Of a stretch of DNA of 64,000 bases, positions 29,447 to 53,387 are shown one piece after another (within the stretch, counting starts at the first letter, position 1; each line of letters opens with the position of its first letter). This stretch comes from Mycoplasmatota bacterium (GTDB lineage: Bacteria; Bacillota_I; Bacilli_A; Izemoplasmatales; Izemoplasmataceae). The position numbers were made by a program, and so were the translations under genes. Location of the stretch: contig JAUVLT010000002.1 of the NCBI GenBank assembly GCA_030600605.1, positions 259-64,258 on the forward strand. Direction: 5' to 3'. Under the pieces are notes generated by a model. That model ran no database searches, was not told where the DNA came from, and saw only the letters and a list, made by a program, of their open reading frames with translations.

Positions 29447-29478
29447 AAGAAAGCAGTCTTTTGCAAGACTGCTTTCTT
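29447..29478 (-). terminator. Rho-independent terminator after the esterase gene
   Basis: 14-bp stem AAGAAAGCAGTCTT/AAGACTGCTTTCTT with a TTGC loop. Overlaps the stop codon. Confidence 0.7.
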
Positions 29479-30247
29479 ATCCATTAAAAAGGAATTTTAT
29501 AATTTCTGGGAATCTTTTCTCCCAGGCAGATTCATGGTGAATTGCGTCTTTTACTATTTCAAATTTAATAACTTCAGGATCTAATTTATCTTTTAATATA
29601 TCAAATATCTCTTGATTTGATTCTAAATACTCTGTGACACGTTCTTTACTTTCCGATTCTTTAGTTCCAACATCTAAATATATTTTCTTTATTTTTGAGA
29701 CATCTGCTTGTTTGGTCAGTTTAATCATCTCTTTTTGAATCGGAAAATATGCATTTGATATACATCCAAATCTAGTAAAATATTTCGAATATTTTAAAGC
29801 TGCATAAGTGGAGCATACTCCACCAAAAGACGATCCCATAATTCCAGTATTTTTAGAGCTCTTAAATGTTCTATATGTTCTATCAATATACACTTTCAAA
29901 GTGTTAATGATAAATGCAATGTAGTCATCTGTTTTTCCTCCGAAAAACTCTCCATCTTTATCAAATTTAAATTTGTAAGGTACTAACTCGTCACTTCTTG
30001 ATTCTCCAGATTCAATTCCAACAATTATAATTTCTGGTAAATCAGAGTGATTTTCATAAGTTTCTAAAATCCCCCAACTTTTCCCATACTTTGTTAGTAT
30101 ATCATCAAATAGATTTTGACCATCATGCATATATAATACTGGATAGAATTTATCCGTCTTATAATAACTCTTTGGCAACGATACAAAAATTCTTATCTCT
30201 CTTTTTAATTCTACAGAATAGATTTTAAAAACAGTGTATTCTTTCAT
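29477..30247 (-). CDS. Alpha/beta-hydrolase, 'putative esterase' (esterase D-like) family
   Basis: YPVLYMHDGQN, nucleophile elbow GSSFGG, C-terminal His (AIHHES). Lies 9 nt downstream of the oligo-1,6-glucosidase stop, so probably co-transcribed. Confidence 0.75.
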   Translation of the reverse strand: MKEYTVFKIYSVELKREIRIFVSLPKSYYKTDKFYPVLYMHDGQNLFDDILTKYGKSWGILETYENHSDLPEIIIVGIESGESRSDELVPYKFKFDKDGEFFGGKTDDYIAFIINTLKVYIDRTYRTFKSSKNTGIMGSSFGGVCSTYAALKYSKYFTRFGCISNAYFPIQKEMIKLTKQADVSKIKKIYLDVGTKESESKERVTEYLESNQEIFDILKDKLDPEVIKFEIVKDAIHHESAWEKRFPEIIKFLFNG

Positions 30248-32218: not shown

Positions 32219-34042
32219 ATGTTGAATTACACAATTTATCATGAAGCTAAAAGTAAGTTTGCATATATGTTTGATAAAGATACTATTCATTTAAGACTTA
32301 TAACAAGTAAGGACAAAATTCATAAAATTGAAGTTATTTGTGGAGATCCTTTTTATTTTAGATTTGAAGAATTAGAAAAAGATAAATATATTATGGTGAA
32401 AGAGTATGAAACAGAAACATACAATCATTATTTTATTGCTATAAAACCCAAATACAAGAGAATGAAATATTCATTTATAATTGATGATCAATATTTATAC
32501 GGTTCTCATGAGATAATTGACATATTAGTAAATCCTAATTCAAAAAAGAACCTTTTTAACTTTTTTAATTTCCCTTACTTAAATGAGGAGGATCTTTTCA
32601 ATGCTCCATCCTGGGTTCAAGATCAAGTGTGGTATAGTATTTTCCCAGAAAGGTTTAAGAATGGAGATAGTTCAATAAACCCAGAAAACACTCTTTCTTG
32701 GGGAGAAACTGATCGTTATTCCAATAGTCAAAGATTTGGAGGAGATCTTCAAGGAATTATAGATAAACTACAATATATAAAAGATATTGGATTTACAGGT
32801 ATTTATATGACTCCAATATTTGAAGCTGACAGTTCGCATAAGTATGATACAACTAATTATTTCAAAATTGATAAGGACTTCGGTGATAATGAAAAATTTA
32901 AAGAATTAGTTGAAAAAGCTCATAATTTAGGTATTAAAGTTATGCTTGATGCTGTTTTTAACCATTCAGGGTTTAGACACCCCTTCTTTCTTGATGTAGT
33001 TAAGAATGGTAAAAAATCCAAATATTATGATTGTTTTTATATTATCAATGGCAAATTACCAGTAACTACTATTAAACTAAATGAAAATATGACAATAAAA
33101 AAAGAGAGTGCTTCTAAATATCATCACAATCCTGATCATTTAAATTACCGGACTTTTGCTTTTACACCATATATGCCAAAACTGAATACAAACAATAAAA
33201 TTATGAAAGAACATTTAATGAAAGTTACTAAATACTGGATTGAAGAATATGATATTGATGGGTGGAGATTAGATGTCAGTAATGAAGTGAGCCATCAATT
33301 TTGGCGTGAATTTAGACAAACTGTTAAAACCTTGAAAAATGACGCTTACATTGTTGGAGAAAATTGGGATAATTCAAATCCTTGGCTTCAAGGAGACCAA
33401 TACGATGGTGTAATGAATTACGAGATATTATTCCCTATTTGGAATTACTTTGGAACAAATATTGATAATAATCCCTATACAAGTACACAATTTATGTATA
33501 AAATAAATAAAGTTCTAACAGATTATCCCAAAAATGTTTTGAAAGCTTTATATAATTTAGTTGATTCCCATGACACAACAAGAATTTTAGAAATATGTTC
33601 AAATAATATTGAATTAGTTAAACTTCCGTATTTATTCTTATTCACCTTTCCCGGTGCACCAAGTATCTATTATGGTGGTGAAATAGGACTGAGTGGTAAA
33701 CACGATCCTGACAATAGAAGATGTATGGAATGGAATTCAAGTATTCAAAACAGCAAATTGCTTAATCATATCAAGAAATTAATAAAATTACGTAATGAGT
33801 ATTGTGATTTTAAAACAACTGATTTCAGATGGTTAGCAACTAATGACAAAGACAAATACATTATATACAACAAAGGAACTCTCTACTTCATAATAAACAA
33901 TAACCCTAATTCAATTACTATCTCCTTGCCACTAGAACTTTCTAACTCTAAATTCAAAGATATTTATAATGAGACATATATTGAATTTAATGACAAATTA
34001 AAGATTAACCCATTACAGTTTTATATAATAGAAAAAATATAA
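32219..34042 (+). CDS. GH13 cyclomaltodextrinase / neopullulanase / maltogenic amylase type enzyme (cytoplasmic)
   Basis: N-terminal domain typical of the CDase group; GH13 regions DAVFNHSG, GWRLDVSNE, VGENWD and LVDSHDTTR. No signal peptide. Confidence 0.88.
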   Translation: MLNYTIYHEAKSKFAYMFDKDTIHLRLITSKDKIHKIEVICGDPFYFRFEELEKDKYIMVKEYETETYNHYFIAIKPKYKRMKYSFIIDDQYLYGSHEIIDILVNPNSKKNLFNFFNFPYLNEEDLFNAPSWVQDQVWYSIFPERFKNGDSSINPENTLSWGETDRYSNSQRFGGDLQGIIDKLQYIKDIGFTGIYMTPIFEADSSHKYDTTNYFKIDKDFGDNEKFKELVEKAHNLGIKVMLDAVFNHSGFRHPFFLDVVKNGKKSKYYDCFYIINGKLPVTTIKLNENMTIKKESASKYHHNPDHLNYRTFAFTPYMPKLNTNNKIMKEHLMKVTKYWIEEYDIDGWRLDVSNEVSHQFWREFRQTVKTLKNDAYIVGENWDNSNPWLQGDQYDGVMNYEILFPIWNYFGTNIDNNPYTSTQFMYKINKVLTDYPKNVLKALYNLVDSHDTTRILEICSNNIELVKLPYLFLFTFPGAPSIYYGGEIGLSGKHDPDNRRCMEWNSSIQNSKLLNHIKKLIKLRNEYCDFKTTDFRWLATNDKDKYIIYNKGTLYFIINNNPNSITISLPLELSNSKFKDIYNETYIEFNDKLKINPLQFYIIEKI

Positions 34043-34057
34043 ATATTAAACAAAAAA

Positions 34058-34085
34058 GGTTCAACGTAAATGATAACGTTGAACC
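34058..34085. terminator. Bidirectional rho-independent terminator closing the 7-gene operon and the neopullulanase gene
   Basis: GGTTCAACGT/ACGTTGAACC 10-bp stem with A/T runs on both sides. Confidence 0.75.
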
Positions 34086-34092
34086 TTTTAAA

Positions 34093-35259
34093 TTATTCTC
34101 CTGTAATACCTGATTTATCAATACTTTCAATAAAGTATCTTTGTACAATTCCGTACATAATAACCAAAGGCATTATTGATAACATTGTTCCTGCAAAAGC
34201 TTTTGCTTCAGTAAAATCAACATTTACAAAATCACCACCAACTGAATAATCTGCTGCGCTACCCCAAGCGGCTTGCAAGCCTTGCAATAGCATTGGAATT
34301 GTTTTGATGTTTCCATCTAAGTATATATTTGTTAAGAATAATTCATTCCAATTTACAGCGAATCCATAAGTCAATGCAATTACAAATGCTGGTACAGCCA
34401 TAGGAACAGCAATTCTAAAGAAAATACTAAGTGTATTTGCTCCATCTAAATATGCTGATTCTTCAATTTGCTTTGGCATCATTTTAAAGAATTGAAAGAA
34501 AATCAAAATGAAAAATGTTGCTTGAACTCCTTGTCCCATAAATGATGGTACCCACAAAGCAAACATTGTCCCCTTCAAACCTAAAGTACTATAAAGCTGA
34601 CTTCTAGAAATAAAGAGCAAAGTTTTTGGTAAAACATAAACCAGTAACATCAATGCTAGTATAAGTTTCTTTAATTTAAAATCAAATCTTGCAAGTCCAT
34701 AGCCAATAATTGCACTACTAAACACAGTAACTAATGTAACTGTACCTGCTACGTACAAACTATCCACATAACTTTTTGGTAAAACAAGAATAACGATAAC
34801 AATTAAACTACTAACAGCAAATAATTTCCCTTTATTTTTGAAATATATTCCCCCACCCATTACCGTAATAGGAATAATTGAAATAATAACAATTAGCTTT
34901 CTAACTTCAACCATATAAGGAGATGCAATAATCAACTCTTTATGCAAGAAAATATTAATTACCGTCTTAAAGTACGATTCATTTAGATTAAGTCCATTCA
35001 CGGCATATAAATAATTTTGGTAATAGATACTTGATGGTATCCACAATATCGTGCTATCTACTAAATCAGTATTTGACATCAGACTAATCATAAACATATA
35101 AAATATTGGATAAATAAAGACAAAAGCGAATGTAATAGATAGGAAATAAATAGCAATTTTGTATAAAACACCGTTGGCATTTCCATTACCAATTAGATGT
35201 TTCTTCCATGTTGGTATTCTATTTCTTATTTTTCTTTTAAATTCATCATATCTATTCAT
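34093..35259 (-). CDS. Carbohydrate ABC transporter permease (MalG-like) with an inserted extra hydrophobic hairpin (388 aa)
   Basis: EAA loop QIEESAYLDGANTLSIFFRIAVP. The ATG at 35257-35259 follows AAGGGAAGGG; the longer ORF-track start would overlap the upstream gene by 80 nt. About 90 extra residues with 2 hydrophobic helices sit between TM1 and the conserved core. Confidence 0.85.
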   Translation of the reverse strand: MNRYDEFKRKIRNRIPTWKKHLIGNGNANGVLYKIAIYFLSITFAFVFIYPIFYMFMISLMSNTDLVDSTILWIPSSIYYQNYLYAVNGLNLNESYFKTVINIFLHKELIIASPYMVEVRKLIVIISIIPITVMGGGIYFKNKGKLFAVSSLIVIVILVLPKSYVDSLYVAGTVTLVTVFSSAIIGYGLARFDFKLKKLILALMLLVYVLPKTLLFISRSQLYSTLGLKGTMFALWVPSFMGQGVQATFFILIFFQFFKMMPKQIEESAYLDGANTLSIFFRIAVPMAVPAFVIALTYGFAVNWNELFLTNIYLDGNIKTIPMLLQGLQAAWGSAADYSVGGDFVNVDFTEAKAFAGTMLSIMPLVIMYGIVQRYFIESIDKSGITGE

Positions 35260-35263
35260 ATTA

Positions 35264-36358
35264 TCACGCCCTTCCCTTTTTATTTGAGCGATCTCTTGTA
35301 AGTAAGAACAATAATGAAATAACAACAATTTGAAGCGATCCATATATTAATGCCATCGCAGATGCATATCCATCACGACGTGATCCATCATTCTTTGATT
35401 GCAATATTAATAAATTAATAGGATTTCCATCAAAGTTAGCTAAGAATACTACAATAAAAATAATTGAAACACTAACAGCAGGATATATCGCTGGTAAAAC
35501 TATTTTCCAAAATATACTCCAGCTGTTTGCTCCATCTATTGAAGCAGCTTCGTACAGACTCTTATCAACCTTTTGGAGCATTGCCAAGAAAATTAATATG
35601 GGCACTCCACAATACCATAGTATTTCGACGATTATTTCAAAAAGTCCAATGAATAAGTTCACAGCTAATTCCGGAATGATTGTATTAATAACATCAATAA
35701 CAAAGAAACTTAGATTTATATCCATTCCTCCATAGTTACTCATGTTTTCTAATAACTCTCCATTCAAAATAATAATTGGTAAAAAGAATATCATTCTAAA
35801 AAAGCCTTTACCCTTTATATCTTGATTTAACAACATCGCAATAATTATCGATAAAGCAATAATGACTGGAGTATAAAGTACTACTCTAGCTAAGAAGTTT
35901 TGAACTTCAAGTACAAAATCAATATCTTCAAATAAAATACGTTCAAAATTTCTTAACCCTACCCATTCATAAGTATAGTTTTGTTGGTACAAACTTACAT
36001 TATTTAAACTCATATAAACAATTCTACCAAATGGATAAAGAACTAATCCTAAGAATCCTAAGATCCATGGAGATACAAACAAATATCCTGTGATTGCTCT
36101 TTTATTAGCAAAACTTGCATTATTCCATTTATTTCTAATTATTTTTCCAATTGTCTTATCAATTACATTTTCATAAAACCATTTTGCCGGCAAGATAAAA
36201 ATATAAGATAATATTTTAATAAAGAATTTTCTTATTTCTATAAACACTTTTAATTCATACAGTTTATCAATAAATCCTACTATATTAGCTAATACTTTAA
36301 CTATGAATTCTTTTATTTTTCTAAACCCATTTACCATTATAATAATTAATTTCTTCAT
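35264..36358 (-). CDS. Carbohydrate ABC transporter permease (MalF-like) with an ~85-aa N-terminal extension (364 aa)
   Basis: EAA loop SLYEAASIDGANSWSIFWKIVLP. ATGA overlap with the upstream 771-aa gene. Confidence 0.85.
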   Translation of the reverse strand: MKKLIIIMVNGFRKIKEFIVKVLANIVGFIDKLYELKVFIEIRKFFIKILSYIFILPAKWFYENVIDKTIGKIIRNKWNNASFANKRAITGYLFVSPWILGFLGLVLYPFGRIVYMSLNNVSLYQQNYTYEWVGLRNFERILFEDIDFVLEVQNFLARVVLYTPVIIALSIIIAMLLNQDIKGKGFFRMIFFLPIIILNGELLENMSNYGGMDINLSFFVIDVINTIIPELAVNLFIGLFEIIVEILWYCGVPILIFLAMLQKVDKSLYEAASIDGANSWSIFWKIVLPAIYPAVSVSIIFIVVFLANFDGNPINLLILQSKNDGSRRDGYASAMALIYGSLQIVVISLLFLLTRDRSNKKGRA

Positions 36359-38670
36359 GATAACACCACATAACTATTCGGAGGAACCATTTCACCCATA
36401 TAAAATATTTCAACATCATTATAATTAACTAATATTTGAATAGTATTATCATATTCTACTAAGCTAACTCCTTTATCTAAGAAAATATGATTTGTCATTT
36501 CTTTGCCTATAGTAACTCCTAATCCTGGGTTTAAAAAATCATAATAATCACTGATTCTTCTTGATAAAACATCATATTGACTAATATAAACATTACTTGA
36601 ATTAGTAGTTTTTAAATCATATGTTGATCCTCCAGTAAGAATATACGAAGGAAATACTCCATATTCTACCATTCTCAATAATGATGTTGATTCATCAGAT
36701 ACAAAGTTTAAATATGGTGAATACATATCAACATATCCCCCTAACACTAATTGTAAGAAGGGAATTGATGCTGATTGAAAACTAAATTCTGACGATGATA
36801 TCGGTGCATCATAATACTCATTCACATATTTATATAAATAAGCATCCGGTAAATATATATTTGTATAAACATCATTATCTTCAAAGTATTTTAACGCTTC
36901 TATGATTTCTGACATGTTTTGTGAACTCGATACTATACCATCTTTGTAACTAGTAAATATAGCGCGATCAAATCCATTCAAAGATATTCCTTCAATATTA
37001 TACTCATTTAAATTCTTAACATCATCTTTAGCAAACTCATCATAATATCTTGTGCTTGTTACACTATGAGCATAAAACATCCAAGATAATTCAATATAGT
37101 AAATTGATCTCTTACTTAGTGTTTGAGCGTGAGATTTTGAATAATCATCATAACTTCTAACATAATCACTATAATAACTAAAAATTATATTATTTTCATC
37201 TAAAAAACTAATCATATCTTCAAAGTCATTTGATCCACCAAGTTGTCTAAAGACTTTAAATCGATAAGAATCTTCATTCATATTGTATGTTTTATATGAT
37301 GTGATTATATTCTTATATCCATCCTCTTTCATTTGAGCTAGTATTTCTGTAACTTCATTATATGTTGTTATTTCTGTTGTTTTCGCAGTTAAAATCCCTG
37401 GAGTTATTTCTGAACCAATAAAATCAACTTTTGTTGGTGTAGATGAATAAATACTTCTTCTCATATCTCCAAGTTGATCATTATCAATTAAATATTCTTG
37501 ATATGTTTTAGCAAGACCTACATAATTTGCTTCAGTACCACTCAAGAATATGTATTTTTGAACTAAATCATAATCATTTATATTTTCTTGAAAAGCAATT
37601 CTATATTGATCTTCATTTGCTCGTGATTGATATTGTTCGTATGATTCACGGTAACGATAACTAAAATAACTATTATAATAATCATTTATTAATCCCGTTG
37701 ATTTAAAATTAAATATTGCGTAATTTGCACCGGATTCACTAACAACTAAGAACCCTGTATTATCAACATCATGAACCACCCCGTAAACTGGCATAGTAAC
37801 ACGTGAAATAGGCTTAACACTCAGCGCTCTAGTTCTAAATGATTGTGACATATAACCTAAGTCAGATCCATAAACATCTAATGAAAATGATGCTTTAATA
37901 TCTGGTGATGATTCTAGTGAAATAAGTGCTCCACTTCCATCAGGTATAACAACATAACCATCTGTTTCAGATTTAGTTGAACCAAAATATGGGAAAACAA
38001 CTATATTTCTCAAAATATAGTATTGTTCTGATGAATCCCAAATATTCGGATTGTATTCCTTTATTGATTCGGCTGGAATATCAACAATCAATGTTCCATC
38101 CTCTATTGATACAATTAAATCAAATTTTATCATAATTTCTGAAAAATCAAAATCTATTTCAGCCTTAAATCCATTTGAAATATCAACAATATTAGCGGTA
38201 GCAACTCTTACATCTTTTGCCCCTTGATCATCAAATACTTCTCTTGTATCTAAATATGATTGAGATGTTGGTGTAGTTTCTTTATAAAGTTCAAGTGTTA
38301 CTCCAGACTTAATAGGATTAACAACTGAATCACTTTCCGAATAGAATCCATCAGCAAAATTATATGATGAATAAACATATCCATTAGCTTTTACTCTTAC
38401 CGCAATTGCCAGTGTTTCTTCTTCTAAGTATAACTGTAATTTATCATCTTCTGCTTTCAATTCAAAAGAAGGCGGAATCACTATATTATAAGTTAGTTCT
38501 TCTTTATTAGGAACTTCAATGTATGAGTTAGAATAGTAATCACTACTGTCTAAATCATTTCCATATCTTAACTCGTAATCAATATCCTTTGCTGATACAG
38601 TTTGAACCAACACGATTATCATTAAGATAGTTAGGGGAATAGCCCCAAGTAACAATGCTTTTTTTATCAT
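36355..38670 (-). CDS. Orphan 771-aa extracytoplasmic protein (N-terminal signal/anchor); function unknown
   Basis: MIKKALLLGAIPLTILMIIVLVQTVSA followed by a large soluble region (e.g. VIPDGSGALISLES, PVYGVVHD). ATGA overlaps on both sides. No catalytic family recognised by eye; it may correspond to a DUF family seen beside sugar ABC permeases (unverified). Confidence 0.8.
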   Translation of the reverse strand: MIKKALLLGAIPLTILMIIVLVQTVSAKDIDYELRYGNDLDSSDYYSNSYIEVPNKEELTYNIVIPPSFELKAEDDKLQLYLEEETLAIAVRVKANGYVYSSYNFADGFYSESDSVVNPIKSGVTLELYKETTPTSQSYLDTREVFDDQGAKDVRVATANIVDISNGFKAEIDFDFSEIMIKFDLIVSIEDGTLIVDIPAESIKEYNPNIWDSSEQYYILRNIVVFPYFGSTKSETDGYVVIPDGSGALISLESSPDIKASFSLDVYGSDLGYMSQSFRTRALSVKPISRVTMPVYGVVHDVDNTGFLVVSESGANYAIFNFKSTGLINDYYNSYFSYRYRESYEQYQSRANEDQYRIAFQENINDYDLVQKYIFLSGTEANYVGLAKTYQEYLIDNDQLGDMRRSIYSSTPTKVDFIGSEITPGILTAKTTEITTYNEVTEILAQMKEDGYKNIITSYKTYNMNEDSYRFKVFRQLGGSNDFEDMISFLDENNIIFSYYSDYVRSYDDYSKSHAQTLSKRSIYYIELSWMFYAHSVTSTRYYDEFAKDDVKNLNEYNIEGISLNGFDRAIFTSYKDGIVSSSQNMSEIIEALKYFEDNDVYTNIYLPDAYLYKYVNEYYDAPISSSEFSFQSASIPFLQLVLGGYVDMYSPYLNFVSDESTSLLRMVEYGVFPSYILTGGSTYDLKTTNSSNVYISQYDVLSRRISDYYDFLNPGLGVTIGKEMTNHIFLDKGVSLVEYDNTIQILVNYNDVEIFYMGEMVPPNSYVVLS

Positions 38671-41060
38671 CTTTCAAACATCTCCCTAACTATTTCAGTC
38701 GAAACAGTAAAAATTTGACTATTCAATGAGTACACAACAAAGATGAAGATTCCCATAATCAACATTGTGAACATACTTTTAAAGATAATTCCAACTGTTT
38801 CTCCTACTTCATAATTATGAATTTCTTTAATCATGAAGAAAAAGTAAATAGCTACCCATATAAAAGTGAAAGTAAATGGGACACTATAAAATACAGCTTC
38901 TTGATATGTTAAGACATTACTAATAATAATAAGTATTGGAGCAATAAATAATATTGGTGTAAAACTCATTGCAGTAGAAACATAAACATTTTTGAACGAT
39001 CCTTCTCCATCATTTATTAAACAAACAAAGTAATTAGCAATTACCCAAAGTATTAATATACTTCCTAAGATAATTAGTTCATATAAAATATTTACATTAA
39101 TTTGATCTAAGAAAATTACATTTGTTATTTTATAATACATAACAAATATTGCTGCTAATGCCAGATAAATAACACTTGCAGTCTTAACTGATACCCGCTC
39201 ATTTTGTTTTATTATATAGTACCCATCTAATGGATGTTTAATAAAAGTCGGAATATAACTTAGTTCATCAATTACTTGACTTTTTTCTCTTATCTTCGTG
39301 AATTTTTTACCAAGTATTTTAGTATAATGATATTTCTTATTAAAGAATTTTAAAATCCATCTTAAAACAATCAATCCTAATAAAGTAGCAAAAACAGTTT
39401 CAAGATTTTGTTCCATCCAATCTTGTCTTACTTGCCAATATGTATCTGATATTCCGTCTTTGTAAGATGCATAAGTATACTCAACTAAAGCTGTTTCATA
39501 ATCTTCTTGACGAACATAAGCATCTCCAAGACCAATATGAGCCAAATCAAATACAGTAGTATATTCAAGTGAATAACTCCAGTTTTCTTGTGCTAAGACC
39601 TCATCACCATCCTGATACGCTTGTAAAGCCGTATGAACTGCATCAGTAAACAATGTGGGTTCATATACTTGTAATAATTTATTACCTTGATCAATAACAA
39701 ATAGACTATCAGATGAGTTTATAGCAATACTTTTTGGTAAACTCAATAACCCTTCTCGATCAATTCCTCGATCACTGACACTGAAACTAAAGATTAATTG
39801 TCCATTTGAATTATATTCATTAATCCATCCGAATTCTTCTACCACAATTACATTACCATAATTTCCAACCCAAAGATCAACTGCACCAATCCATCCAACT
39901 GCATCTTGACTAAAATAGTTTTTACCCGATACATTAAATTTCTTTATTACATTATCTTCCAAAGTTGATGTAACAGTATAAATAAACCCCTTTTCATCAA
40001 TAGCTACACTACTGACAAAATCGACATCAATTTGTGATTCTGTTCTTAATTGTTTTTTCTGTACCTCAGTTAAAATAAGTGATCTTATTTGATCCAGTAT
40101 TGGAGTTCTAAGTGGATTACCACCAAAAAATGTTAGAAACTCTCCTTCGTAATTCAGCATTATTAGTCCATTACTAGACTGTGCTCCTACGATATACATA
40201 TTTCCTCTAGTATCAACAACTACCTTTTTAGGCGCAAAAGTATACCCTTCTTGAAATACTGGAGCTGTAGGTGTTTTTATTATTTGAATTGGTACATTTT
40301 TTTGAGCATATATAGTATGTTTCAATAATGTTTTATTATCATAATCTGCTGTTACCCAAGAAAGAATTCTACCAATCATATCGTTTTTATCTATCTTTTC
40401 AAATAGTGGTTCTTTTGTTTCATAATCTTTAAATAATATAATATCTCTACCTGAATCTGTTTGTCCTGTTATTTCAATTTCATAAACCGGAGACCCTGTA
40501 GGTGTATCAACACCACTAACATTTTTACTACTGTAAAAAAGATCACCAGTCGTCAAAGTGTCAGATAGATCAACATCATCTAGCCATAAATAGTATTGTG
40601 GAGCACGACTAAGTGCTTCCTCTCGATCAAAAATGAAGATACTTTTACGAAAACTATCTGGAACATAGATTTTATCTTCAGTTACAAAAACACTATTAAC
40701 AGCATTAAACCCATCTTTTTCTCCAACACTAGATTCAAAGTATTCAATTGTATCAATAAAATTCAAATCTTGATCAAAGATAAACACTTTCGCATGTCCA
40801 GAATCAGTAATATATACATAATCCTCATGATCTACATAAACATATTCAAGTGTCTTAAAAGCTACTCCTCCCGCATCAAGTATTTGACCTTCAGGAGTAT
40901 AAGCATCACTTGTTCTAACCCATCCATCTTCATTATCAGTTGTATATGTATAATATGGTGCTGTACTTGCTAATACACCTTTAGTAGATGAGAAAACAAC
41001 AAGTAAAATAACTGTAAAGAATAATAACATCGCTACTGCTTGGTTAACAAAACCTTTCAT
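38667..41060 (-). CDS. Fusion membrane protein: extracytoplasmic NHL-like beta-propeller plus TPR-like segment plus C-terminal Yip1-like 5-TM domain (797 aa)
   Basis: N-terminal anchor. Repeated NHL-like blades (YVYITDSGHAKVFIFDQDLNFI, IYVPDSFRKSIFIFD, MYIVGAQSSNGLIMLNYEGEF, FIYTVTSTLEDNVIKKFNVSG, LFVIDQGNKLLQVYEP). A TM at residues ~553-572 is followed by a basic loop and 5 further TM helices. Confidence 0.8.
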   Translation of the reverse strand: MKGFVNQAVAMLLFFTVILLVVFSSTKGVLASTAPYYTYTTDNEDGWVRTSDAYTPEGQILDAGGVAFKTLEYVYVDHEDYVYITDSGHAKVFIFDQDLNFIDTIEYFESSVGEKDGFNAVNSVFVTEDKIYVPDSFRKSIFIFDREEALSRAPQYYLWLDDVDLSDTLTTGDLFYSSKNVSGVDTPTGSPVYEIEITGQTDSGRDIILFKDYETKEPLFEKIDKNDMIGRILSWVTADYDNKTLLKHTIYAQKNVPIQIIKTPTAPVFQEGYTFAPKKVVVDTRGNMYIVGAQSSNGLIMLNYEGEFLTFFGGNPLRTPILDQIRSLILTEVQKKQLRTESQIDVDFVSSVAIDEKGFIYTVTSTLEDNVIKKFNVSGKNYFSQDAVGWIGAVDLWVGNYGNVIVVEEFGWINEYNSNGQLIFSFSVSDRGIDREGLLSLPKSIAINSSDSLFVIDQGNKLLQVYEPTLFTDAVHTALQAYQDGDEVLAQENWSYSLEYTTVFDLAHIGLGDAYVRQEDYETALVEYTYASYKDGISDTYWQVRQDWMEQNLETVFATLLGLIVLRWILKFFNKKYHYTKILGKKFTKIREKSQVIDELSYIPTFIKHPLDGYYIIKQNERVSVKTASVIYLALAAIFVMYYKITNVIFLDQINVNILYELIILGSILILWVIANYFVCLINDGEGSFKNVYVSTAMSFTPILFIAPILIIISNVLTYQEAVFYSVPFTFTFIWVAIYFFFMIKEIHNYEVGETVGIIFKSMFTMLIMGIFIFVVYSLNSQIFTVSTEIVREMFER

Positions 41061-41935
41061 TACTTAATACCCGAATGAGCCATTGAGGCCATTACTTTAT
41101 TTTGCATAATTATGAAAATAATTATATTTGGTATGAACATTATAAGTTGTGCGGCAGCACCAACACCGGCAGTAACTACGATGTTTCCTTGCTGACTTAT
41201 CACAGTTGACATATAAAACGGTAATGTTCTTAAAGATTCTTTATCGACAAATAAATTTGATCCCTCAGTATTAGCCCAAGCAATTTGGAAAGCTAAAATT
41301 GCTACTGTAACAATTGCTGGCTTAACTAATGGAAGGGCAATACTCCAGTAAACTCTCCAGTTACCAGCCCCATCAATTTTTGCTGCTTCAATCAATTCCT
41401 TTGGAACTGATGTATCCATAAATTGTTTGATTAAAAAGATTCCCACAGGCATAGCTAATAAAGGAATAATATGTGCAAAGTAAGTGTTATATATTCCAAT
41501 ATTAATTAAAACTAGGAAACGTGGAATCATCACAGCGATTGGAACAAACATCAAACTATATGTATTAATTTTATTTAGCACTATTTTACCTTTAAATTCT
41601 AACTTAGATAAAGCAAAGGCTGCCAAACTACTAATAATTAATGATGCAACTATCACAGCTGCAGTTGTTATTACACTATTAAAAATATATCTACTTATTG
41701 GAATACCTGATTCACTCGAAAATCTTATTAACCTTGAAAAGTTTTCAGTAGTAGGTCTTCGAACAAAAAATGTTGGTGGATATGCAAATAACTCACTAAA
41801 AGGCTTAAATGCATGATTAAAAATGAACACTATTGGTGATCCCATAAATAAAGATAATACAATTAAGAATGCATGAAATCGCCATTGATTTTTATGAAAA
41901 CGATCTGGATTAAATGTTATACCTGATTTTGCCAT
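41060..41935 (-). CDS. Carbohydrate ABC transporter permease (MalG-like, 291 aa)
   Basis: EAA loop ELIEAAKIDGAGNWRVYWSIALP; 6 TM helices. Its stop shares one base with the next start (TAATG). Confidence 0.9.
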   Translation of the reverse strand: MAKSGITFNPDRFHKNQWRFHAFLIVLSLFMGSPIVFIFNHAFKPFSELFAYPPTFFVRRPTTENFSRLIRFSSESGIPISRYIFNSVITTAAVIVASLIISSLAAFALSKLEFKGKIVLNKINTYSLMFVPIAVMIPRFLVLINIGIYNTYFAHIIPLLAMPVGIFLIKQFMDTSVPKELIEAAKIDGAGNWRVYWSIALPLVKPAIVTVAILAFQIAWANTEGSNLFVDKESLRTLPFYMSTVISQQGNIVVTAGVGAAAQLIMFIPNIIIFIIMQNKVMASMAHSGIK

Positions 41936-41940
41936 AATAT

Positions 41941-42846
41941 CTAACCCCTCTCTCCAAATAATCGATATGCTATTTTATTAAACAAAAGAACAATAACTAG
42001 TAAAATTACAGTTACTGCAGAAGCATATCCCATTTCAAATCTCGTAAACCCAAAATCATTCGCATGGTCTACGATAAGCCAGCCAGCATATTGTGGTGGG
42101 GTTCCCCCACCCGATAAAGCAGATGCCAATCCAGCAGCATTAAAAGTACCAATAATACTCATAACTGCTCCAAATAACATTTGTGGTTTTATAGATGGAA
42201 TAGTAATGTAAAATATTTCTTGCCATCTGTTTCTCATCCCATCAATCGCAGCTGCTTCATATAAACTACGATCAATATTTAAAATACCAGCGAGCATTGC
42301 TAAAAATCCAAGTCCCATACTTCCCCATAATGATACGATAATCATAATCGGAAATAGGTAATCAGCATCTTGTAAAAATTGAATTGGTGAATCAATACTA
42401 AACATATTTATTAACATACTATTGATATATCCTGTTTCATCACCACTAAAGATTATTCTCCATACAAAGGCCATCATAATTGGTCCTGTAATAGATGGTG
42501 AATAAATAATTACGGCATAAATAGTTCTAGCTTTATGTGGTACTTGTGCTAACATCCATGCAAGGAAGAAGGCCATCATATAACCAATAGGTCCAACAAC
42601 AACACTAAATAAGATAGTATTTGAAACAGCATTTTGTAAAAATACTGTATCACCTGTAAAAATATCCACATAGTTTTTTAGTCCAATAAATGTTGGTGTT
42701 TCAATTGTATTAAAAGACGTAAAACTAAGTCCCATAGCTACAAGTACTGGTAAAGCAATTACCAATATAAATAAGATAGCATAAGGTGCAATGAATAAGT
42801 AAGGTGATTGTAGTAATCTTTTAAATCCTTTACTCTTCATCATCAT
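41941..42846 (-). CDS. Carbohydrate ABC transporter permease (MalF-like, ~300 aa)
   Basis: EAA loop SLYEAAAIDGMRNRWQEIFYITIP. Three consecutive ATGs follow AGGAGGTA; the 2nd or 3rd is the more likely start. Overlaps the upstream stop. Confidence 0.9.
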   Translation of the reverse strand: MMMKSKGFKRLLQSPYLFIAPYAILFILVIALPVLVAMGLSFTSFNTIETPTFIGLKNYVDIFTGDTVFLQNAVSNTILFSVVVGPIGYMMAFFLAWMLAQVPHKARTIYAVIIYSPSITGPIMMAFVWRIIFSGDETGYINSMLINMFSIDSPIQFLQDADYLFPIMIIVSLWGSMGLGFLAMLAGILNIDRSLYEAAAIDGMRNRWQEIFYITIPSIKPQMLFGAVMSIIGTFNAAGLASALSGGGTPPQYAGWLIVDHANDFGFTRFEMGYASAVTVILLVIVLLFNKIAYRLFGERG

Positions 42847-45800
42847 TACCTCCTAGCCACAGATGAATATTCTCATAAGTAGGAACAATATATGGTTCCA
42901 CCATAACTCCATCTTCATAATATCCAAACTCAGTTAATTTTCTTTTAAGTTCCCTGTTTATAATTATAACCGCATCATCAATTGCCACACGTGGATTTAC
43001 TCCATCGTTTACAACTTTGTTCCAAGCGTTACTAAGTTCTCGTTCAAGTAAATAATCACCAGGAACTCGTCCTGTTGTTCGAACCCAGTTCCATTGTTCT
43101 AATACTTCATATTTCGAGTCACTTGGCCAAGCACTTGTTTTAAATGCTTCAATATTTGCAGTCATATACAAGAATTCATCTCCAAGTAAAGACTGAAGTT
43201 GATATGTAAAATCACTTTGTACATCTTTACTAAACCACCAAGCAAAATATTCCCATGCTAGATCTTGTTTTGATGAATCTGAAAAAATTATACTACTAGT
43301 CCCATAAGTTGGATCCCATCTTTCGATACATCTGTCACCAGTTAGTGGTCCAGGACATGTTGTTTCATCTTTATCAGTTTCAATACCAGGAATAGGCATT
43401 ACTCCCCATTGTCCCGCAAGTTCAGGAGCAGCATATTTTAATTGAATATACATATTTCCGTCCCCTATACCAAGAGGAACTTGTCCATCTCTAAACTTTT
43501 GGAAAAATCTTGATGTCGTAATTGGTACATTATAAACACTAAACAAATCTGTCATAAATTCAAATGCATCATACGATCCATCTTCATTAATAATTGTTTT
43601 ATCTCCAGTTTCATTATATAAAACTCCACCATATTGATAAATAAATGGTGTCGTTTCTCCAAATGTTTTAAAAGCATTATCTCCACCTAGTGGAGTATAA
43701 AAATAATAATTATACTTTTGCATTACAGGAATTAAACTAACTACTTCTTCCCATGTTTCAGGTGGCTCAACACCTAAAAATTCTAAAATATCTTTTCGAT
43801 AAAATAGTAATTTAACATCTTGAGTTTCAGGAATAGAATAAATTCCTCCTTCATATACAAAAGGTATAAAAGAATTTTCATTGAATTCAGCTGATAAATC
43901 ATAAAATCCATCAAATTCAGAAAGATCAGTTACTATTCCTCTTAAAGCGAATTCAAAAGGCCTTGTAACACTTAATCCCATTGCAGCATCAGGTGTAGTG
44001 CCTGCAGCATTCGCAAGAACTATTTTATTTTCATCAGGCATGACTGATAATTGAACTTTCACTCCAGTTTCTGATGTGAATTCCTCATCAATCATTCTTT
44101 GCATTACTTCAATATATAATCTTGAATTTCTAACCCATATTTCAACAGTTTCTTCATCGGTAATAGAAGCATCGTTATATTTTGGATCAAAAAACGAATA
44201 AACAAATGCTCTTATTCCTTCCCAACTTCTTATAAAAATATTGACATTAGGTTTAGGTAATTCGATATTTTCACCATGAATATAAATCGAATCTAATTGA
44301 AGTGGATTATCAATTAAGCTCGGTAATATAATATTGATACGTCCATAAATGGATGTATCTCCAACATTATATCTAGATTGATATGGTGGTATTTCATCAG
44401 GATCCTCAATAAATTGATTCATATATTTAATAGCAATATTTAATTCAGTAATTATCGCCATGTCATCAGATTCATATATTTCAATTAACTGGTTTCTACT
44501 ATCAATTATTTCGTCTCTTTGTCTAGTTAGTTCTCCTACAATATTTGGAATATAGACATCAAGTTTGTAGTTACGATATCTGTCAGTTAATCCACCAGTA
44601 ATTTTGTTAACTTCGCGTGCTAAATCATTAATATCACTTAATACTTCTACCAATTGATGGTATACATCATCAACATCTTCATTTACTGCGGTAAGCGTTA
44701 GTGAATGTGTTCCAGCTGTAAAATAAAACTCAAATGCTTCACCATCAAGATGCAATGTTTCATTTCGATAATTTCTTGAATAAGGAAAATCATAATTTTT
44801 TAAATCCTCAAACAAAATATCGCCATCAATTAATATACGGCGACTAGTTGAGAGATCTTCATTTTCACTTTGAAGATATTTTAAAGAAAGGTTATAAATA
44901 CCTGTTTCTGCAATTTCAAATATATACGTTATACTATCTCCACTCTTACGATAAGATGATTGATCTACCACATTTAAAACACGATTCTTGTAAGAATATG
45001 GTGTAAGTCCAGGATTTCTTTGAAACTTAGCTCTAATATTTTGTTTGCTTTCATATGTATATCTTTCAGCATCAATTACTAATAAAGAATCAGCTTTTGA
45101 AGAAGTTTCTAATGAAGAAAGGTATTCAGAATAACTAGGAATATCAGAAGATAGGTTTCCTATTTCTATATCCCCTAACAAAATATACCCTTCATTTATT
45201 ATAATTGATAATTCGTTTTCTCCAGCTTGTAAGAAAAATTTAAGAGGCTCATTGAAAAAATAGTTTGGATCGGATAAAGCAAAAACACTCCATTCTTGAA
45301 ATAAAGAACTATCTGGAGTTATTTCATCACCAAATCGATCAAACAGCTTTTCTGAATCAACTTCCCACTTTAATGGTATTTCTAAATTGTACATTTCATT
45401 ATATTGAACAATATCATTTACTTTAAATGTAAGTGTTGGTCTAAGTAATGTTTCTTCTAATAGATAATAATTTAAATATAACTCATAAAGTCCCTCTTCA
45501 GACACATTTACTGTAAAAGTGATTTCATCTTTAGGAGTAACTTTTATTGTCTCACGATTATATCCTCGACTATAATAAGGCGAGATTTCTTCTCCTCCCA
45601 CTATATCTTCAACATTAATTAAATAAACATCACTAGGTGATAAAATGTTTAATTCTTGCCAATAATTATAAACACCATAGTAATTATTACTTTCGTCATA
45701 TCCTTCTAAATAAGCAGAACTAGAATCAACAATACTTTCAAACTTAACATTTGCTACTTCTTCTAAAATACTATTAGCGCTTGCCACGTTATGAAAATGT

Positions 45801-45865
45801 GACAACACTTTGTCTCCGAATATCAATGAAAATAATAGAACAATTATTAAAATTTTTCTATACAT
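42830..45865 (-). CDS. Giant extracellular solute-binding protein: two CBM-like beta-sandwich modules plus helical linker plus family-1 SBP domain (1011 aa)
   Basis: Signal peptide without a lipobox Cys. Two ~200-aa modules show CBM6/35-like patterns (EGLYELYLNYY..., TGIYNLSLKYLQ...). The C-terminal ~450 aa are SBP-like (VEIWVRNS..., PDAAMGLS..., WGVMPIPG). Confidence 0.8.
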   Translation of the reverse strand: MYRKILIIVLLFSLIFGDKVLSHFHNVASANSILEEVANVKFESIVDSSSAYLEGYDESNNYYGVYNYWQELNILSPSDVYLINVEDIVGGEEISPYYSRGYNRETIKVTPKDEITFTVNVSEEGLYELYLNYYLLEETLLRPTLTFKVNDIVQYNEMYNLEIPLKWEVDSEKLFDRFGDEITPDSSLFQEWSVFALSDPNYFFNEPLKFFLQAGENELSIIINEGYILLGDIEIGNLSSDIPSYSEYLSSLETSSKADSLLVIDAERYTYESKQNIRAKFQRNPGLTPYSYKNRVLNVVDQSSYRKSGDSITYIFEIAETGIYNLSLKYLQSENEDLSTSRRILIDGDILFEDLKNYDFPYSRNYRNETLHLDGEAFEFYFTAGTHSLTLTAVNEDVDDVYHQLVEVLSDINDLAREVNKITGGLTDRYRNYKLDVYIPNIVGELTRQRDEIIDSRNQLIEIYESDDMAIITELNIAIKYMNQFIEDPDEIPPYQSRYNVGDTSIYGRINIILPSLIDNPLQLDSIYIHGENIELPKPNVNIFIRSWEGIRAFVYSFFDPKYNDASITDEETVEIWVRNSRLYIEVMQRMIDEEFTSETGVKVQLSVMPDENKIVLANAAGTTPDAAMGLSVTRPFEFALRGIVTDLSEFDGFYDLSAEFNENSFIPFVYEGGIYSIPETQDVKLLFYRKDILEFLGVEPPETWEEVVSLIPVMQKYNYYFYTPLGGDNAFKTFGETTPFIYQYGGVLYNETGDKTIINEDGSYDAFEFMTDLFSVYNVPITTSRFFQKFRDGQVPLGIGDGNMYIQLKYAAPELAGQWGVMPIPGIETDKDETTCPGPLTGDRCIERWDPTYGTSSIIFSDSSKQDLAWEYFAWWFSKDVQSDFTYQLQSLLGDEFLYMTANIEAFKTSAWPSDSKYEVLEQWNWVRTTGRVPGDYLLERELSNAWNKVVNDGVNPRVAIDDAVIIINRELKRKLTEFGYYEDGVMVEPYIVPTYENIHLWLGGNDDEE

Positions 45866-45890: not shown

Positions 45891-45927
45891 AACCAATAAC
45901 CCTTCAGAAGGTGAAGAGTTATTGGTT
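45891..45927 (-). terminator. Strong intercistronic stem-loop between the two SBP genes (partial terminator / mRNA stabiliser)
   Basis: The minus-strand RNA AACCAAUAACUCUUCA-CCUUC-UGAAGGGUUAUUGGUU forms a ~16-bp stem (one G-U pair). It is followed by a poor U-tract (UGUUAGUAUUG). Confidence 0.5.
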
Positions 45928-53170: not shown

Positions 53171-53227
53171 AACTATATATATAATTCTACATTTTTTGAA
53201 TTAAATAGTCAAAAGATTTACAAAAGA

Positions 53228-53356: not shown

Positions 53357-53381
53357 AAAAAAAGCACGAATAAATTCGCAC
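53357..53381 (-). terminator. Rho-independent terminator after the pullulanase gene
   Basis: The minus-strand RNA GUGCGAAUUUAUUCGUGC forms a 7-bp stem (two G-U pairs) followed by U7. Confidence 0.6.
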
Positions 53382-53387
53382 TATTTT

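Follow-up and report, generated by a model that had tools for sequence, protein, structure and literature searches.

A widespread seven-gene glycan-import cassette with two permease pairs in an Izemoplasmatales-like genome

Introduction

The closest described systems are the CUT1 importers (TC 3.A.1.1), such as MalEFGK2 and the MsmX/MsmK-energised systems of Firmicutes, which likewise have MalF/MalG-type permeases with EAA loops; in MsmX-type systems the ATPase is commonly encoded elsewhere. The sophoro-oligosaccharide importer Lin1841-1843 of Listeria innocua provides, in Lin1841, the nearest solved relative of the family-1 domain of the giant binding protein described below. In contrast to both, the gene cassette reported here unites two pairs of permeases with two binding proteins in one invariant unit, adds CBM35-like modules and a coiled-coil-like stretch to one of the latter, and carries two large conserved non-transporter membrane and ectoproteins between the pairs. 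The Lmo0181/TdCIBP-type binding proteins for cycloalternan and cycloisomalto-oligosaccharides, of which Lmo0181 is related to the lipoprotein family encoded upstream of the cassette, are described as serving ordinary transporters with one binding protein and one permease pair (PMC13084667), compared with two and two here. Some cassettes adjoin GH66 genes, and large or cyclic glucans are a plausible, in the cyclic case putative, cargo.

Genetic coupling of a Yip1-type polytopic membrane protein to an ABC transporter has a precedent in Bacillus subtilis, where the Yip1-family protein YknW is reported to modulate assembly of the YknXYZ transporter (PMC4887032, citing Yamada et al. 2012). YknYZ is, however, a MacB-type exporter with a membrane-fusion protein, whereas the partners in the cassette are type-I importers, and the cassette Yip1 domain bears an extracellular NHL propeller and TPR region of ~520 aa. 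The second non-transporter protein, DUF5696, is closest in predicted fold to GH129 (NagBb alpha-N-acetylgalactosaminidase and the Zobellia 3,6-anhydro-D-galactosidase) and to the GH101 endo-alpha-GalNAc-ases, but identity is only 11-13% and the pair of conserved acids expected in the barrel is missing; unlike those enzymes it is membrane-anchored, and its gene is always flanked by genes for ABC permeases.

Gram-positive polysaccharide utilisation loci and the SusCD systems of Bacteroidota offer a functional analogy only: there too the transport core is constant while flanking CAZymes and regulators vary with substrate, and surface glycan-binding proteins adjoin the transporter. Unlike SusCD, the cassette has no TonB-dependent transporter or SusD, and employs ABC translocators in a single membrane. 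We know of no counterpart of the DUF5696 and propeller-Yip1 accessory proteins in described loci.

Results

Seven tightly packed genes occupy the minus strand at positions 34093-45865 of the window, the whole 64-kb stretch of DNA analysed. They and the features around them are as follows, in the order of transcription:

47781-53132, minus strand: 1783-aa repeat-rich surface protein, N-terminal signal/anchor and C-terminal TM helix
45947-47764, minus strand: SBP605, 605-aa lipoprotein solute-binding protein, lipobox VGC at Cys20, SBP_bac_1 E=1e-5
45891-45927, minus strand: 16-bp hairpin with a poor T-tail, within the 81-nt spacer separating the two binding-protein genes
42830-45865, minus strand: SBP1011, 1011-aa giant binding protein, SBP_bac_1 at 588-883, E=5e-28
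41941-42846, minus strand: permA1, 301 aa, canonical CUT1 MalF/UgpA-type permease, BPD_transp_1 1.2e-13, UgpA 4.8e-23, EAA loop at residue 197
41060-41935, minus strand: permA2, 291 aa, canonical CUT1 MalG/UgpE-type permease, BPD_transp_1 2.5e-12, UgpE 2.4e-23, EAA loop at residue 183
38667-41060, minus strand: 797-aa polytopic membrane protein, Pfam Yip1 26.3 bits, weak NHL
36355-38670, minus strand: 771-aa DUF5696 ectoprotein, PF18952 E=3.3e-133
35264-36358, minus strand: permB1, 364 aa, divergent MalF/GlcT-type permease, BPD_transp_1 1.5e-6, GlcT 3.9e-12, EAA loop at residue 270
34093-35259, minus strand: permB2, 388 aa, divergent MalG/GlcU-type permease, GlcU 7.7e-13, MalG 4.7e-11, loop at residue 266
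34054-34089, both strands: bidirectional intrinsic terminator, 14-bp stem with 5 GC pairs, T-run on each strand

The ORF list and the junction sequences, read base by base, reproduce every overlap and gap given in the original prediction. The SBP1011 and permA1 genes share 17 nt (42830-42846), with AGGAGG preceding ATGATGATG; permA1 and permA2 are separated by 5 nt (41936-41940; TAG ATATT ATG); permA2 and the 797-aa gene have the single base 41060 in common (TAATG); and ATGA overlaps join the 797-aa and DUF5696 genes (38667-38670) and the DUF5696 and permB1 genes (36355-36358). The gap between permB1 and permB2 is 4 nt (35260-35263) if permB2 starts at 35259; its longest ORF starts at 35343, and the ribosome site GGGAAGGG before 35259 favours the shorter form. 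The strong terminator predicted to end the block is indeed present, and it also closes the convergent GH13 gene.

Consensus scans for promoter-like and terminator-like sites, on which the reading of a single transcript is based, suggest that the transcription unit probably reaches further upstream, into the 605-aa and 1783-aa genes, because these two are joined by a 16-nt spacer containing AGGAGG and because the sole strong upstream sites are a terminator-like one at 53382-53363, past the end of the preceding gene, and a promoter-like one at 53212-53184. The 1783-aa gene, which lies outside the conserved seven-gene core, is thus probably the first of the transcript. It contains 369-nt (123-aa) tandem repeats, and its product has only a weak Bact_surface_Ig-like match and found no match in a PDB sequence search.

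The four permeases form two pairs of MalF/UgpA-like and MalG/UgpE-like proteins, as originally proposed. EAA-x3-G loops occur in all four and are conserved across 67 orthologue sets; that of permB2 reads EESAYLDGA, and its Pfam match is sub-threshold (18.5 bits). PermB1 has an N-terminal extension in this clade (orthologues are 282-350 aa). Mean identity is 57-60% for pair A and 41-45% for the faster-evolving pair B. The lack of an ATPase noted earlier was borne out by a tblastn search with a MalK/MsmX-type query, which found none within the 64-kb window; a MalK-type ATPase adjoins the cassette in 7 loci. From what is established for CUT1 systems, we infer that both pairs are powered by a MalK/MsmX-type ATPase encoded elsewhere.

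SBP1011 begins with a TM/signal anchor (5-23) without a lipobox, followed by a CBM35-like beta-sandwich (~90-395), a coiled-coil-like region (~400-550) and a family-1 sugar-binding domain (~560-1000). Its family profile (A3) matches Lin1841 (1.6e-24), the CBM35 insert of CITase (2.6e-7, positions 275-393) and, at 400-550, designed coiled coils in the PDB, and its orthologues match CBM_35, Golvesin_C and GH115_C. The original prediction had overlooked a second binding protein upstream, SBP605, strong orthologues of which lie immediately 5' of the cassette in loci L001-L004, L007 and L008. Of the 58 members of this lipoprotein family, spread over 57 loci, 55 have a lipobox and 47 lie immediately upstream; in some loci the lipoprotein is not adjacent to the cassette. 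The family profile matches 22hh in the PDB at E=4e-127, with Lmo0181 second best at 2.5e-41; the lipoprotein is a genuine family-1 binding protein, and 22hh is a relative of known structure. SBP605 can be regarded as an eighth, usually present, component. The hairpin at 45891-45927 is possibly a partial terminator or mRNA stabiliser that would give an excess of lipoprotein transcript.

The description of the 797-aa protein as an NHL-propeller/Yip1 protein agrees with the AF2 model (pLDDT 82), with Foldseek and with profile searches of the PDB. It scores just under the Pfam Yip1 cut-off of 28.6 bits, and its homologues carry PF04893. TM1 (8-26) is followed by an extracellular six-bladed NHL propeller (38-468) with a clade-specific insertion of ~100 aa at 150-255, TPR-like helices (470-530), TM2 (552-570) and a Yip1-type 5-TM domain (623-776). 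The best Foldseek matches are the NHL domains of TRIM71/TRIM2 (TM 0.76), and the family profile finds the PknD-derived Pizza proteins (1e-32) and TPR proteins. We do not know YknW to have an NHL propeller and TPR region.

The 771-aa protein, taken to be an orphan on first inspection, is instead a member of DUF5696, a family of ~5,800 clusters at 50% identity. An N-terminal TM anchor (5-23) precedes a beta-sandwich (70-377), a (beta/alpha)8 barrel (~410-690) and a C-terminal beta-sandwich (725-770). The AF2 model (pLDDT 84.3, pTM 0.87) predicts a GH129/GH101-like fold: Foldseek returns 5opq (GH129, E=1.4e-30) and 5wzn (TM 0.73), then GH101, GH36 and GH31, and the predicted three-domain arrangement of beta-sandwich, TIM barrel and beta-sandwich matches that of GH129/GH101 best, at E=1e-30 and TM 0.69-0.74. 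The loop P243-D244-G245-x-G247 in the first beta-sandwich is invariant, as are the acids D244, E421 and E669; D416 is conserved, and position 502 is acidic in 81% of orthologues, whole subclades having N, E, K or S there instead of D. No acid is universally conserved among orthologues at the usual beta4/beta6 positions of GH-D-like barrels, and profile searches gave no sequence link from DUF5696 to any GH family. At the top of the barrel, positions 609 and 634 set the alpha-glucan clade apart from the others.

The genome_contigs collection contains at least 579 DUF5696-encoding stretches. We retrieved 79 loci from Bacilli, Mycoplasmatota, Erysipelotrichia, Clostridia and Chloroflexota, and four from look-ups brought the total to 83. 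All seven genes are co-linear on one strand in 67 of them, the remaining 16 being cut by contig ends, so that every locus with enough sequence (67/67) has the same seven genes in identical order; gene calls made separately and labelled by Pfam give this content as well. The junction between the Yip1 and DUF5696 genes is overlapping in 100% of loci and that between the DUF5696 and permB1 genes is ≤20 nt in 100%. The components co-diverge (distance-matrix correlations 0.81-0.94), most tightly Yip1, DUF5696 and pair B (0.87-0.94), with the maximum of 0.94 between Yip1 and DUF5696. The seven-gene block is one copy of a widespread cassette of single-membrane bacteria, and the proposed partnership of the two large proteins with the transporter is upheld at the genomic level: the neighbourhood survey supports the 797-aa and DUF5696 proteins as obligate genomic partners of both permease pairs. 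What conserved order and co-divergence show is inheritance together and a shared function, as distinct from a physical complex. In the open-access literature we found no paper describing the cassette or any characterised example, consistent with what had been surmised.

The neighbouring glycosidases vary by lineage. Beta-1,2-glucan enzymes are commonest, and the families beside cassettes comprise PF10091 (which we take to be GH144), GH3, SOGP, GH94, GH35-like, GH16, GH130, GH31, GH51, GH66 and GH13, the last in this clade. Histidine-kinase/AraC or LacI regulators often adjoin the cassette and vary by locus while the cassette is constant. Among the flanking genes here are those for a secreted pullulanase, for GH13 amylases and for a neopullulanase-type GH13. 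Judged by these enzymes, the cargo would be a starch- or pullulan-derived oligosaccharide; elsewhere the cassette would serve loci for beta-1,2-glucan, dextran, mannosides or arabinan and, probably, for beta-1,3-glucan.

Discussion

We consider it moderately probable that the block represents, in this genome, a mobile glycan-import cassette of ancient origin with seven strictly co-linear genes, whose products are assembled as follows. The CBM modules of the giant binding protein would tether polymeric or long oligosaccharide substrates at the membrane surface; the chain would be bound or trimmed by the DUF5696 ectodomain, with a pocket that varies with substrate class; the propeller/TPR/Yip1 protein may, by analogy with the comparable role of YknW in YknXYZ, act as the scaffold on which both ABC translocators assemble with the ectoproteins; and the two translocators would receive the oligosaccharides, possibly with differing chain-length preferences. 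A possibility that we take seriously, while holding it to be short of probable, is that the parts are co-regulated and physically independent, as two ordinary binding protein-dependent CUT1 importers (for short and long oligosaccharides, for example), with a DUF5696 surface enzyme or lectin and a separate membrane protein in the operon for co-expression only. Each permease pair is complete and has its EAA loops, two binding proteins are at hand, and the far stronger conservation of pair A suggests different constraints on the pairs. Genes that are merely co-expressed normally shuffle, however, while order, strand and overlapping junctions here stay the same in at least three phyla and through changes of substrate, and the tightest co-divergence unites Yip1 and DUF5696 with pair B.

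It is doubtful that import is coupled to catalysis, with DUF5696 forming a new GH family, akin to GH129/GH101, of active tethered hydrolases or transglycosylases that dock on pair B, perhaps replacing a binding protein, and feed product into the channel while pair A uses SBP1011. The high-confidence predicted three-domain fold shared with GH129, GH101, GH36 and GH31, the invariant PDGSG loop, the conserved acids, the clade differences at 609 and 634, and a gene order (Yip1-DUF5696-permB1-permB2) that parallels the usual order of binding protein and two permeases speak for such coupling; the lack of a conserved pair of acids at the canonical positions of the barrel, the substitutions of D502 and the missing sequence link to GH families speak against it, and the structural relatives are alpha-retaining, yet beta-glucan loci hold most cassettes. 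Because universal acids are absent at the usual beta4/beta6 positions, both an enzyme and a binding module stand as readings of DUF5696. A non-transporting sensor is unlikely. In that reading a PknD-like propeller and a pseudo-enzyme would let pair B, Yip1 and DUF5696 detect glycan outside the cell and adjust either importer A or gene expression. In profile, the propeller comes closest to the sensor domain family of PknD, DUF5696 may lack catalytic activity, and regulators are often next door; but these change between loci, no kinase or DNA-binding output domain is fused to any cassette protein, and pair B keeps its EAA coupling loops in all lineages, which implies ATPase-driven cycling. Least credible, and very improbable, is the composite machine originally envisaged for feeding polymeric alpha-glucan to a wall-less cell. 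GH13, pullulanase and putative surface proteins abound at the locus, and the host is Izemoplasmatales-like (best matches Candidatus Izimaplasma and Xianfuyuplasma). Alpha-glucan use stands as a local specialisation; as a general role it fails on the beta-1,2-glucan loci that are the main setting and on the GH16, GH130, GH31, GH51 and GH66 loci, and the link to a missing wall falls with the equal presence of the cassette in walled Bacillaceae, Paenibacillaceae and Clostridia, and in Chloroflexota.

With the upstream lipoprotein counted, the system comprises two binding proteins and two permease pairs. Because the adjacent glycosidases change between lineages, the cassette is a generic glycan-import module, placed here in a starch/pullulan locus.

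Organization of the operon

Seven genes at 34093-45865 form a minus-strand block, as both the open reading frame table and the junction sequences confirm.

Genes of the operon, in gene order (window coordinates)
42830-45865, minus strand, 1011-aa giant solute-binding protein (SBP1011)
41941-42846, minus strand, permease permA1 (pair A)
41060-41935, minus strand, permease permA2 (pair A)
38667-41060, minus strand, 797-aa propeller-TPR-Yip1 protein
36355-38670, minus strand, 771-aa DUF5696 ectoprotein
35264-36358, minus strand, permease permB1 (pair B)
34093-35259, minus strand, permease permB2 (pair B)

Each of the tight junctions is reproduced. SBP1011 and permA1 overlap by 17 nt (42830-42846), permA1 and permA2 are 5 nt apart (41936-41940), and permA2 shares one base with the 797-aa protein gene at 41060 (TAATG). 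Two ATGA overlaps follow, at 38667-38670 and 36355-36358, and then 4 nt between permB1 and permB2 (35260-35263), a spacing that holds if permB2 starts at 35259, a start preceded by a GGGAAGGG ribosome site. An alternative permB2 start at 35343 gives an 80-nt overlap with permB1. The terminator at the end of the block is present as a T-tailed hairpin with a 14-bp stem (34054-34089), which also terminates a convergent GH13 gene.

These junctions, together with the EAA loops of the permeases and the lack of an ATPase gene in the window, uphold the original prediction as an observation, with two amendments. One is that a 605-aa lipoprotein binding protein (45947-47764), encoded upstream, belongs to the system; its gene is translationally close-coupled to that of a 1783-aa surface protein (47781-53132) and is probably co-transcribed with it, judging from a 16-nt AGGAGG spacer and from terminator-like and promoter-like sites at 53363-53382 and 53184-53212, respectively; the promoter scan is uninformative where AT content is this high, with 125 sites detected versus 118 expected. 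The other is a perfect 16-bp hairpin with a weak T-tail (45891-45927, minus strand) within the 81 nt that separate the two binding-protein genes; it may act as a partial terminator or an mRNA-stabilising element and so yield an excess of binding-protein transcript.

The window has a GC content of about 29%, with a GC skew that is steadily negative on the plus strand, and its host is an Izemoplasmatales-like, free-living, wall-less organism. A Mycoplasma host using genetic code 4 was rejected, as the reading frames are intact under table 11. An assembly artefact was likewise rejected, given the existence of close orthologous loci and of a 100% identical DUF5696 protein on record (P0001).

Permeases and ATPase

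The EAA-x3-G loop is present in all four permeases and is kept, as judged by column conservation, in 67 orthologue sets. Family models bear out the two predicted pairs, each MalF/UgpA-like plus MalG/UgpE-like, so that the permease heterodimer typical of the CUT1 family (TC 3.A.1.1) occurs twice, as the UgpA/UgpE-like pair A and the GlcT/GlcU-like pair B. The Pfam score of permB2 lies below the cut-off (18.5 versus 26.4 bits); NCBIfam permease models do match it. Compared with most orthologues (approximately 285-300 and 305-335 aa), both pair-B permeases of the window are long (364 and 388 aa), the extra length consisting of N-terminal extensions with additional hydrophobic segments. The extracellular family-1 (cluster D) binding protein expected of CUT1 importers is represented by both the 1011-aa protein and the 605-aa lipoprotein family.

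Few transporters are better understood than the ABC sugar importers, whose textbook unit combines two permeases and two ATPase subunits with a single binding protein. A tblastn search found no MalK/MsmX-type ATPase gene in the operon or anywhere in the 64-kb window, including any with the C-terminal TOBE/OB domain of the CUT1 family, in agreement with the original prediction. A MalK-type gene (ABC_tran, OB_MalK and TOBE_2) adjoins the cassette in seven related loci. Orphan MsmX-type ATPases are commonly shared among importers, and the missing gene is therefore compatible with CUT1 membership; from what is known of this family, both permease pairs would be powered by an MsmX/MalK-type ATPase encoded elsewhere. 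An exporter function was rejected, since the architecture is EAA-loop and binding-protein dependent.

Two binding proteins

The 1011-aa protein matches SBP_bac_1 (E=5e-28), and its profile matches Lin1841 and MalE-type structures. It consists, in order, of a transmembrane or signal anchor, a CBM35-like region, a coiled-coil-like stretch and the binding domain, whose closest solved relative is Lin1841, a sophoro-oligosaccharide binding protein of Listeria innocua. The CBM35-like region has its match (2.6e-7) in the CBM35 insert of cycloisomalto-oligosaccharide glucanotransferase, and orthologues match CBM_35, Golvesin_C and GH115_C.

A lipoprotein of approximately 490-600 aa adjoins the cassette in 57 loci, lying directly upstream in 47; of the 58 members, 55 have a lipobox. 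The family profile marks it as a family-1 sugar-binding protein, with matches to Lmo0181 and to PDB 22hh (E=4e-127), one of five entries (22hh-22hl) for a 474-aa 'Extracellular solute-binding protein family 1'. The 22hh chain is 70-73% identical to the lipoproteins encoded upstream of the Chloroflexota cassettes L013, L032, L042, L045 and L047. We found no publication for these five entries in the searchable literature; their ligand would show the cargo of the commonest cassette type.

A DUF5696 protein with a predicted GH129-like fold

The 771-aa protein, taken for an orphan in the original prediction, belongs from end to end to DUF5696 (PF18952; E=3e-133), with a score of 445.8 bits versus a 25.6-bit Pfam gathering cut-off and an alignment that runs from position 6 of the model to its end at position 612. 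When 1.84 billion representatives were searched with a profile, 5,805 clusters at 50% identity were returned. The AlphaFold (AF2) model (pLDDT 84, pTM 0.87) predicts an N-terminal transmembrane anchor followed by a (beta/alpha)8 barrel set between two beta-sandwiches, the second of them C-terminal, and a Foldseek search with it places GH129 closest (5opq, E=1.4e-30; 5wzn, TM 0.73), followed by GH101, GH36 and GH31. With TM-scores of 0.69-0.74 to 5opq and 5wzn, the model has the GH-D-like fold of GH129 and GH101. At the level of sequence, 23 DUF5696 members gave no glycoside hydrolase Pfam match even at E<=10, and the DUF5696 profile matched no PDB sequence.

Catalytic residues were sought by setting conservation in a MAFFT alignment (fast settings) against the predicted barrel strands. 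Invariant across 80 orthologues are a P-D-G-x-G loop (243-247), E421, N655, E669 and N749, the invariant acids thus being D244, E421 and E669; none follows the fourth or sixth barrel strand. At the candidate barrel acid D502, only 81% of orthologues have an acidic residue, and some subclades have replaced it throughout. Two positions at the top of the barrel are candidate specificity determinants: position 634 is Asp or Glu in 88% of orthologues but Ala or Ser in those of the alpha-glucan/dextran clade, the window protein having Ala, and at position 609 this clade has Asp where most others have Asn. DUF5696 might found a new glycoside hydrolase family. One homologue record, P0048 (707 aa, on a 2.4-kb ENA contig), has an Asn_synthase match (PF00733) fused to DUF5696, probably a gene-calling or assembly artefact of the short contig.

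The propeller-TPR-Yip1 protein

The AlphaFold model of the 797-aa protein (pLDDT 82) predicts a transmembrane helix, a six-bladed NHL propeller, TPR-like helices, a second transmembrane helix and a five-helix membrane-spanning Yip1-type domain, the last with its helices at residues 623-776. The propeller assignment is strong in structure (Foldseek TM 0.76 to the NHL domains of TRIM71 and TRIM2) and in profile searches of the PDB (PknD-derived Pizza proteins, 1e-32; PknD, 8.7e-18); the Pfam NHL match of the single sequence is marginal. The window protein also scores below the Yip1 cut-off (PF04893; 26.3 versus 28.6 bits, model positions 6-171 of 173), and most of its homologues carry a precomputed PF04893 match and are named 'YIP1 family protein'. 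In the Izemoplasmatales clade a beta-rich insertion of about 100 residues (approximately 150-255) is present that is absent from the Haloplasma, Paenibacillus and Vallitalea homologues (about 675 aa).

In the searchable literature, the one precedent that we found for cooperation between a Yip1 protein and an ABC transporter is YknW, which is reported to act with YknXYZ (PMC4887032). The cassette shares only the Yip1 element with YknWXYZ, in which a MacB-type permease is accompanied by an ATPase, a membrane-fusion protein and the Yip1 protein; the cassette permeases are BPD_transp_1 type-I importer subunits, and domain searches of the cassette products revealed neither a MacB-type domain nor a membrane-fusion protein.

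Conservation of the cassette

The closest DUF5696 homologues are in Candidatus Izimaplasma (69%) and Xianfuyuplasma (60%), followed at about 40% by Haloplasma, Niallia, Paenibacillus and Anaerobacillus. When GTDB species were scanned, each represented by one genome, at least 579 stretches encoding a DUF5696 relative were found, and the 79 loci kept derive from Bacillaceae, Paenibacillaceae, Amphibacillus, Alkalibacterium, Erysipelotrichaceae, Mycoplasmatota, several Clostridia families and Chloroflexota. When the reading frames of 83 loci were searched with eight window proteins, 67 were found to encode the binding protein (about 1000 aa), permA1, permA2, the Yip1 protein, DUF5696, permB1 and permB2 in the same order on one strand, and the other 16 are all interrupted by contig ends. 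Thus both large proteins co-occur with duplicated permease pairs in every locus long enough to judge (67 of 67), and separate gene calls with Pfam labels give the same content. The Yip1 and DUF5696 genes overlap in every locus, and the distance from DUF5696 to permB1 is at most 20 nt throughout. Mean identities are 57-60% for pair A, 41-45% for pair B, 35% for the Yip1 protein and 29% for DUF5696. The pairwise-distance matrices of the components other than the giant binding protein, whose reading frame is split in some metagenome-assembled genomes, correlate at 0.81-0.94, the highest values being Yip1-DUF5696 (0.94), Yip1-permB1, Yip1-permB2 and permB1-permB2 (0.92 each). This distribution, spanning Bacillaceae, Paenibacillaceae, Clostridia and Chloroflexota, contradicts the proposal that the system is an adaptation of wall-less cells to alpha-glucan.

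Genomic context and substrates

The flanking genes vary by lineage; the cassette is constant. The commonest arrangement (GH94, lipoprotein binding protein, cassette, PF10091, LacI, GH35-like, GH3 and 1,2-beta-oligoglucan phosphorylase) is a beta-1,2-glucan locus, its PF10091 members being what we take to be GH144 beta-1,2-glucanases. Other loci combine GH16, a weakly GH94-like protein and GH3, or carry GH130, GH31 or GH51; those of Niallia and Paenibacillus have GH66 and a histidine kinase/AraC pair, and those of Haloplasma and Xianfuyuplasma, like the window, have GH13 and pullulanase genes. The window copy sits within an alpha-glucan locus, its neighbors including four GH13-family genes, one of them a pullulanase, and the repeat-rich surface protein. 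Among the window neighbors scanned there is no regulator of the LacI, AraC or histidine-kinase type, in contrast to many related loci.

Genes flanking the operon (window coordinates)
29477-30247, esterase gene
30257-31939, minus strand, oligo-glucosidase-like GH13
32219-34042, plus strand, neopullulanase/cyclomaltodextrinase-like GH13
47781-53132, minus strand, 1783-aa surface protein, about ten repeats of approximately 123 aa (369-nt tandem repeat in the DNA)
53388-56525, minus strand, pullulanase, GH13 with PUD and CBM48
56675-58888, plus strand, amylase, GH13 with Big_2

The 1783-aa protein has an N-terminal signal or anchor and, in place of a wall-sorting motif, a C-terminal transmembrane helix. 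It matched no PDB sequence, and Pfam gave a weak Ig-like match only; inspection by eye gives the impression that its repeats are putative starch-binding modules. Large Ig-like surface proteins also lie beside the cassette in five related loci (L023, L028, L071, L084 and L085).

Discussion

The cassette is a conserved, horizontally spread and substrate-agnostic glycan-import module of single-membrane bacteria, in which two complete permease pairs are combined with a pair of binding proteins and a pair of obligatory accessory proteins. How its parts work together can be proposed in outline: all would join in one assembly, in which the CBM-bearing binding protein would hold polymer or long oligosaccharides, DUF5696 would bind or trim them, with barrel-top positions 609 and 634 differing between the alpha-glucan clade and the others, and the propeller-TPR-Yip1 protein would serve as a scaffold for the translocators.

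Rival readings are that the parts are independent and co-expressed, that import is coupled to the enzyme through pair B, or that the role is that of a sensor. Returning to the single assembly, we regard it as possible, if somewhat doubtful, that the cassette represents an undescribed class of multi-component glycan importer, in which a GH129-fold enzyme or pseudoenzyme and a propeller-TPR-Yip1 scaffold hold two ABC translocators and a pair of binding proteins physically together to capture and import long or cyclic glucans, as a monoderm functional counterpart of SusCD. If so, the glucans captured would be beta-1,2-glucan, dextran or cyclodextran, and maltodextrin or pullulan fragments.

Each component belongs to a known superfamily, and many genomes already carry piecemeal annotation of the cassette. 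In the searchable literature, outside which most subscription papers lie, we found neither the seven-gene unit nor DUF5696 nor the propeller-Yip1 protein described, and the cassette is mentioned neither in PMC12102758 and the paper on the cycloisomalto-oligosaccharide cluster nor in the papers retrieved on oligoglucan phosphorylase gene clusters and on beta-1,2-glucan binding proteins. What sets this CUT1 importer system apart is an invariant set of accessory parts that has no precedent, together with a duplicated translocator.

The cassette departs from the textbook importer in its two permease pairs, its CBM-fused binding protein and its two conserved accessory proteins, and it is kept gene for gene in all testable loci, across at least three phyla, accompanying whichever glycosidases a lineage needs. 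Its distribution is wide and its conservation strict; it is uncharacterised and occurs in culturable genera, among them Niallia, Paenibacillus and Metabacillus, and some loci lie beside enzymes of defined substrate (dextran, beta-1,2-glucan); the hypothesis is therefore directly testable, provided that the hosts are genetically tractable. DUF5696 and the bacterial propeller-Yip1 proteins thereby gain a concrete and testable functional context. The finding is also relevant to polysaccharide feeding by the free-living, wall-less Izemoplasmatales, and suggests that the cassette is a general way for bacteria without an outer membrane to retain and import large glycans.
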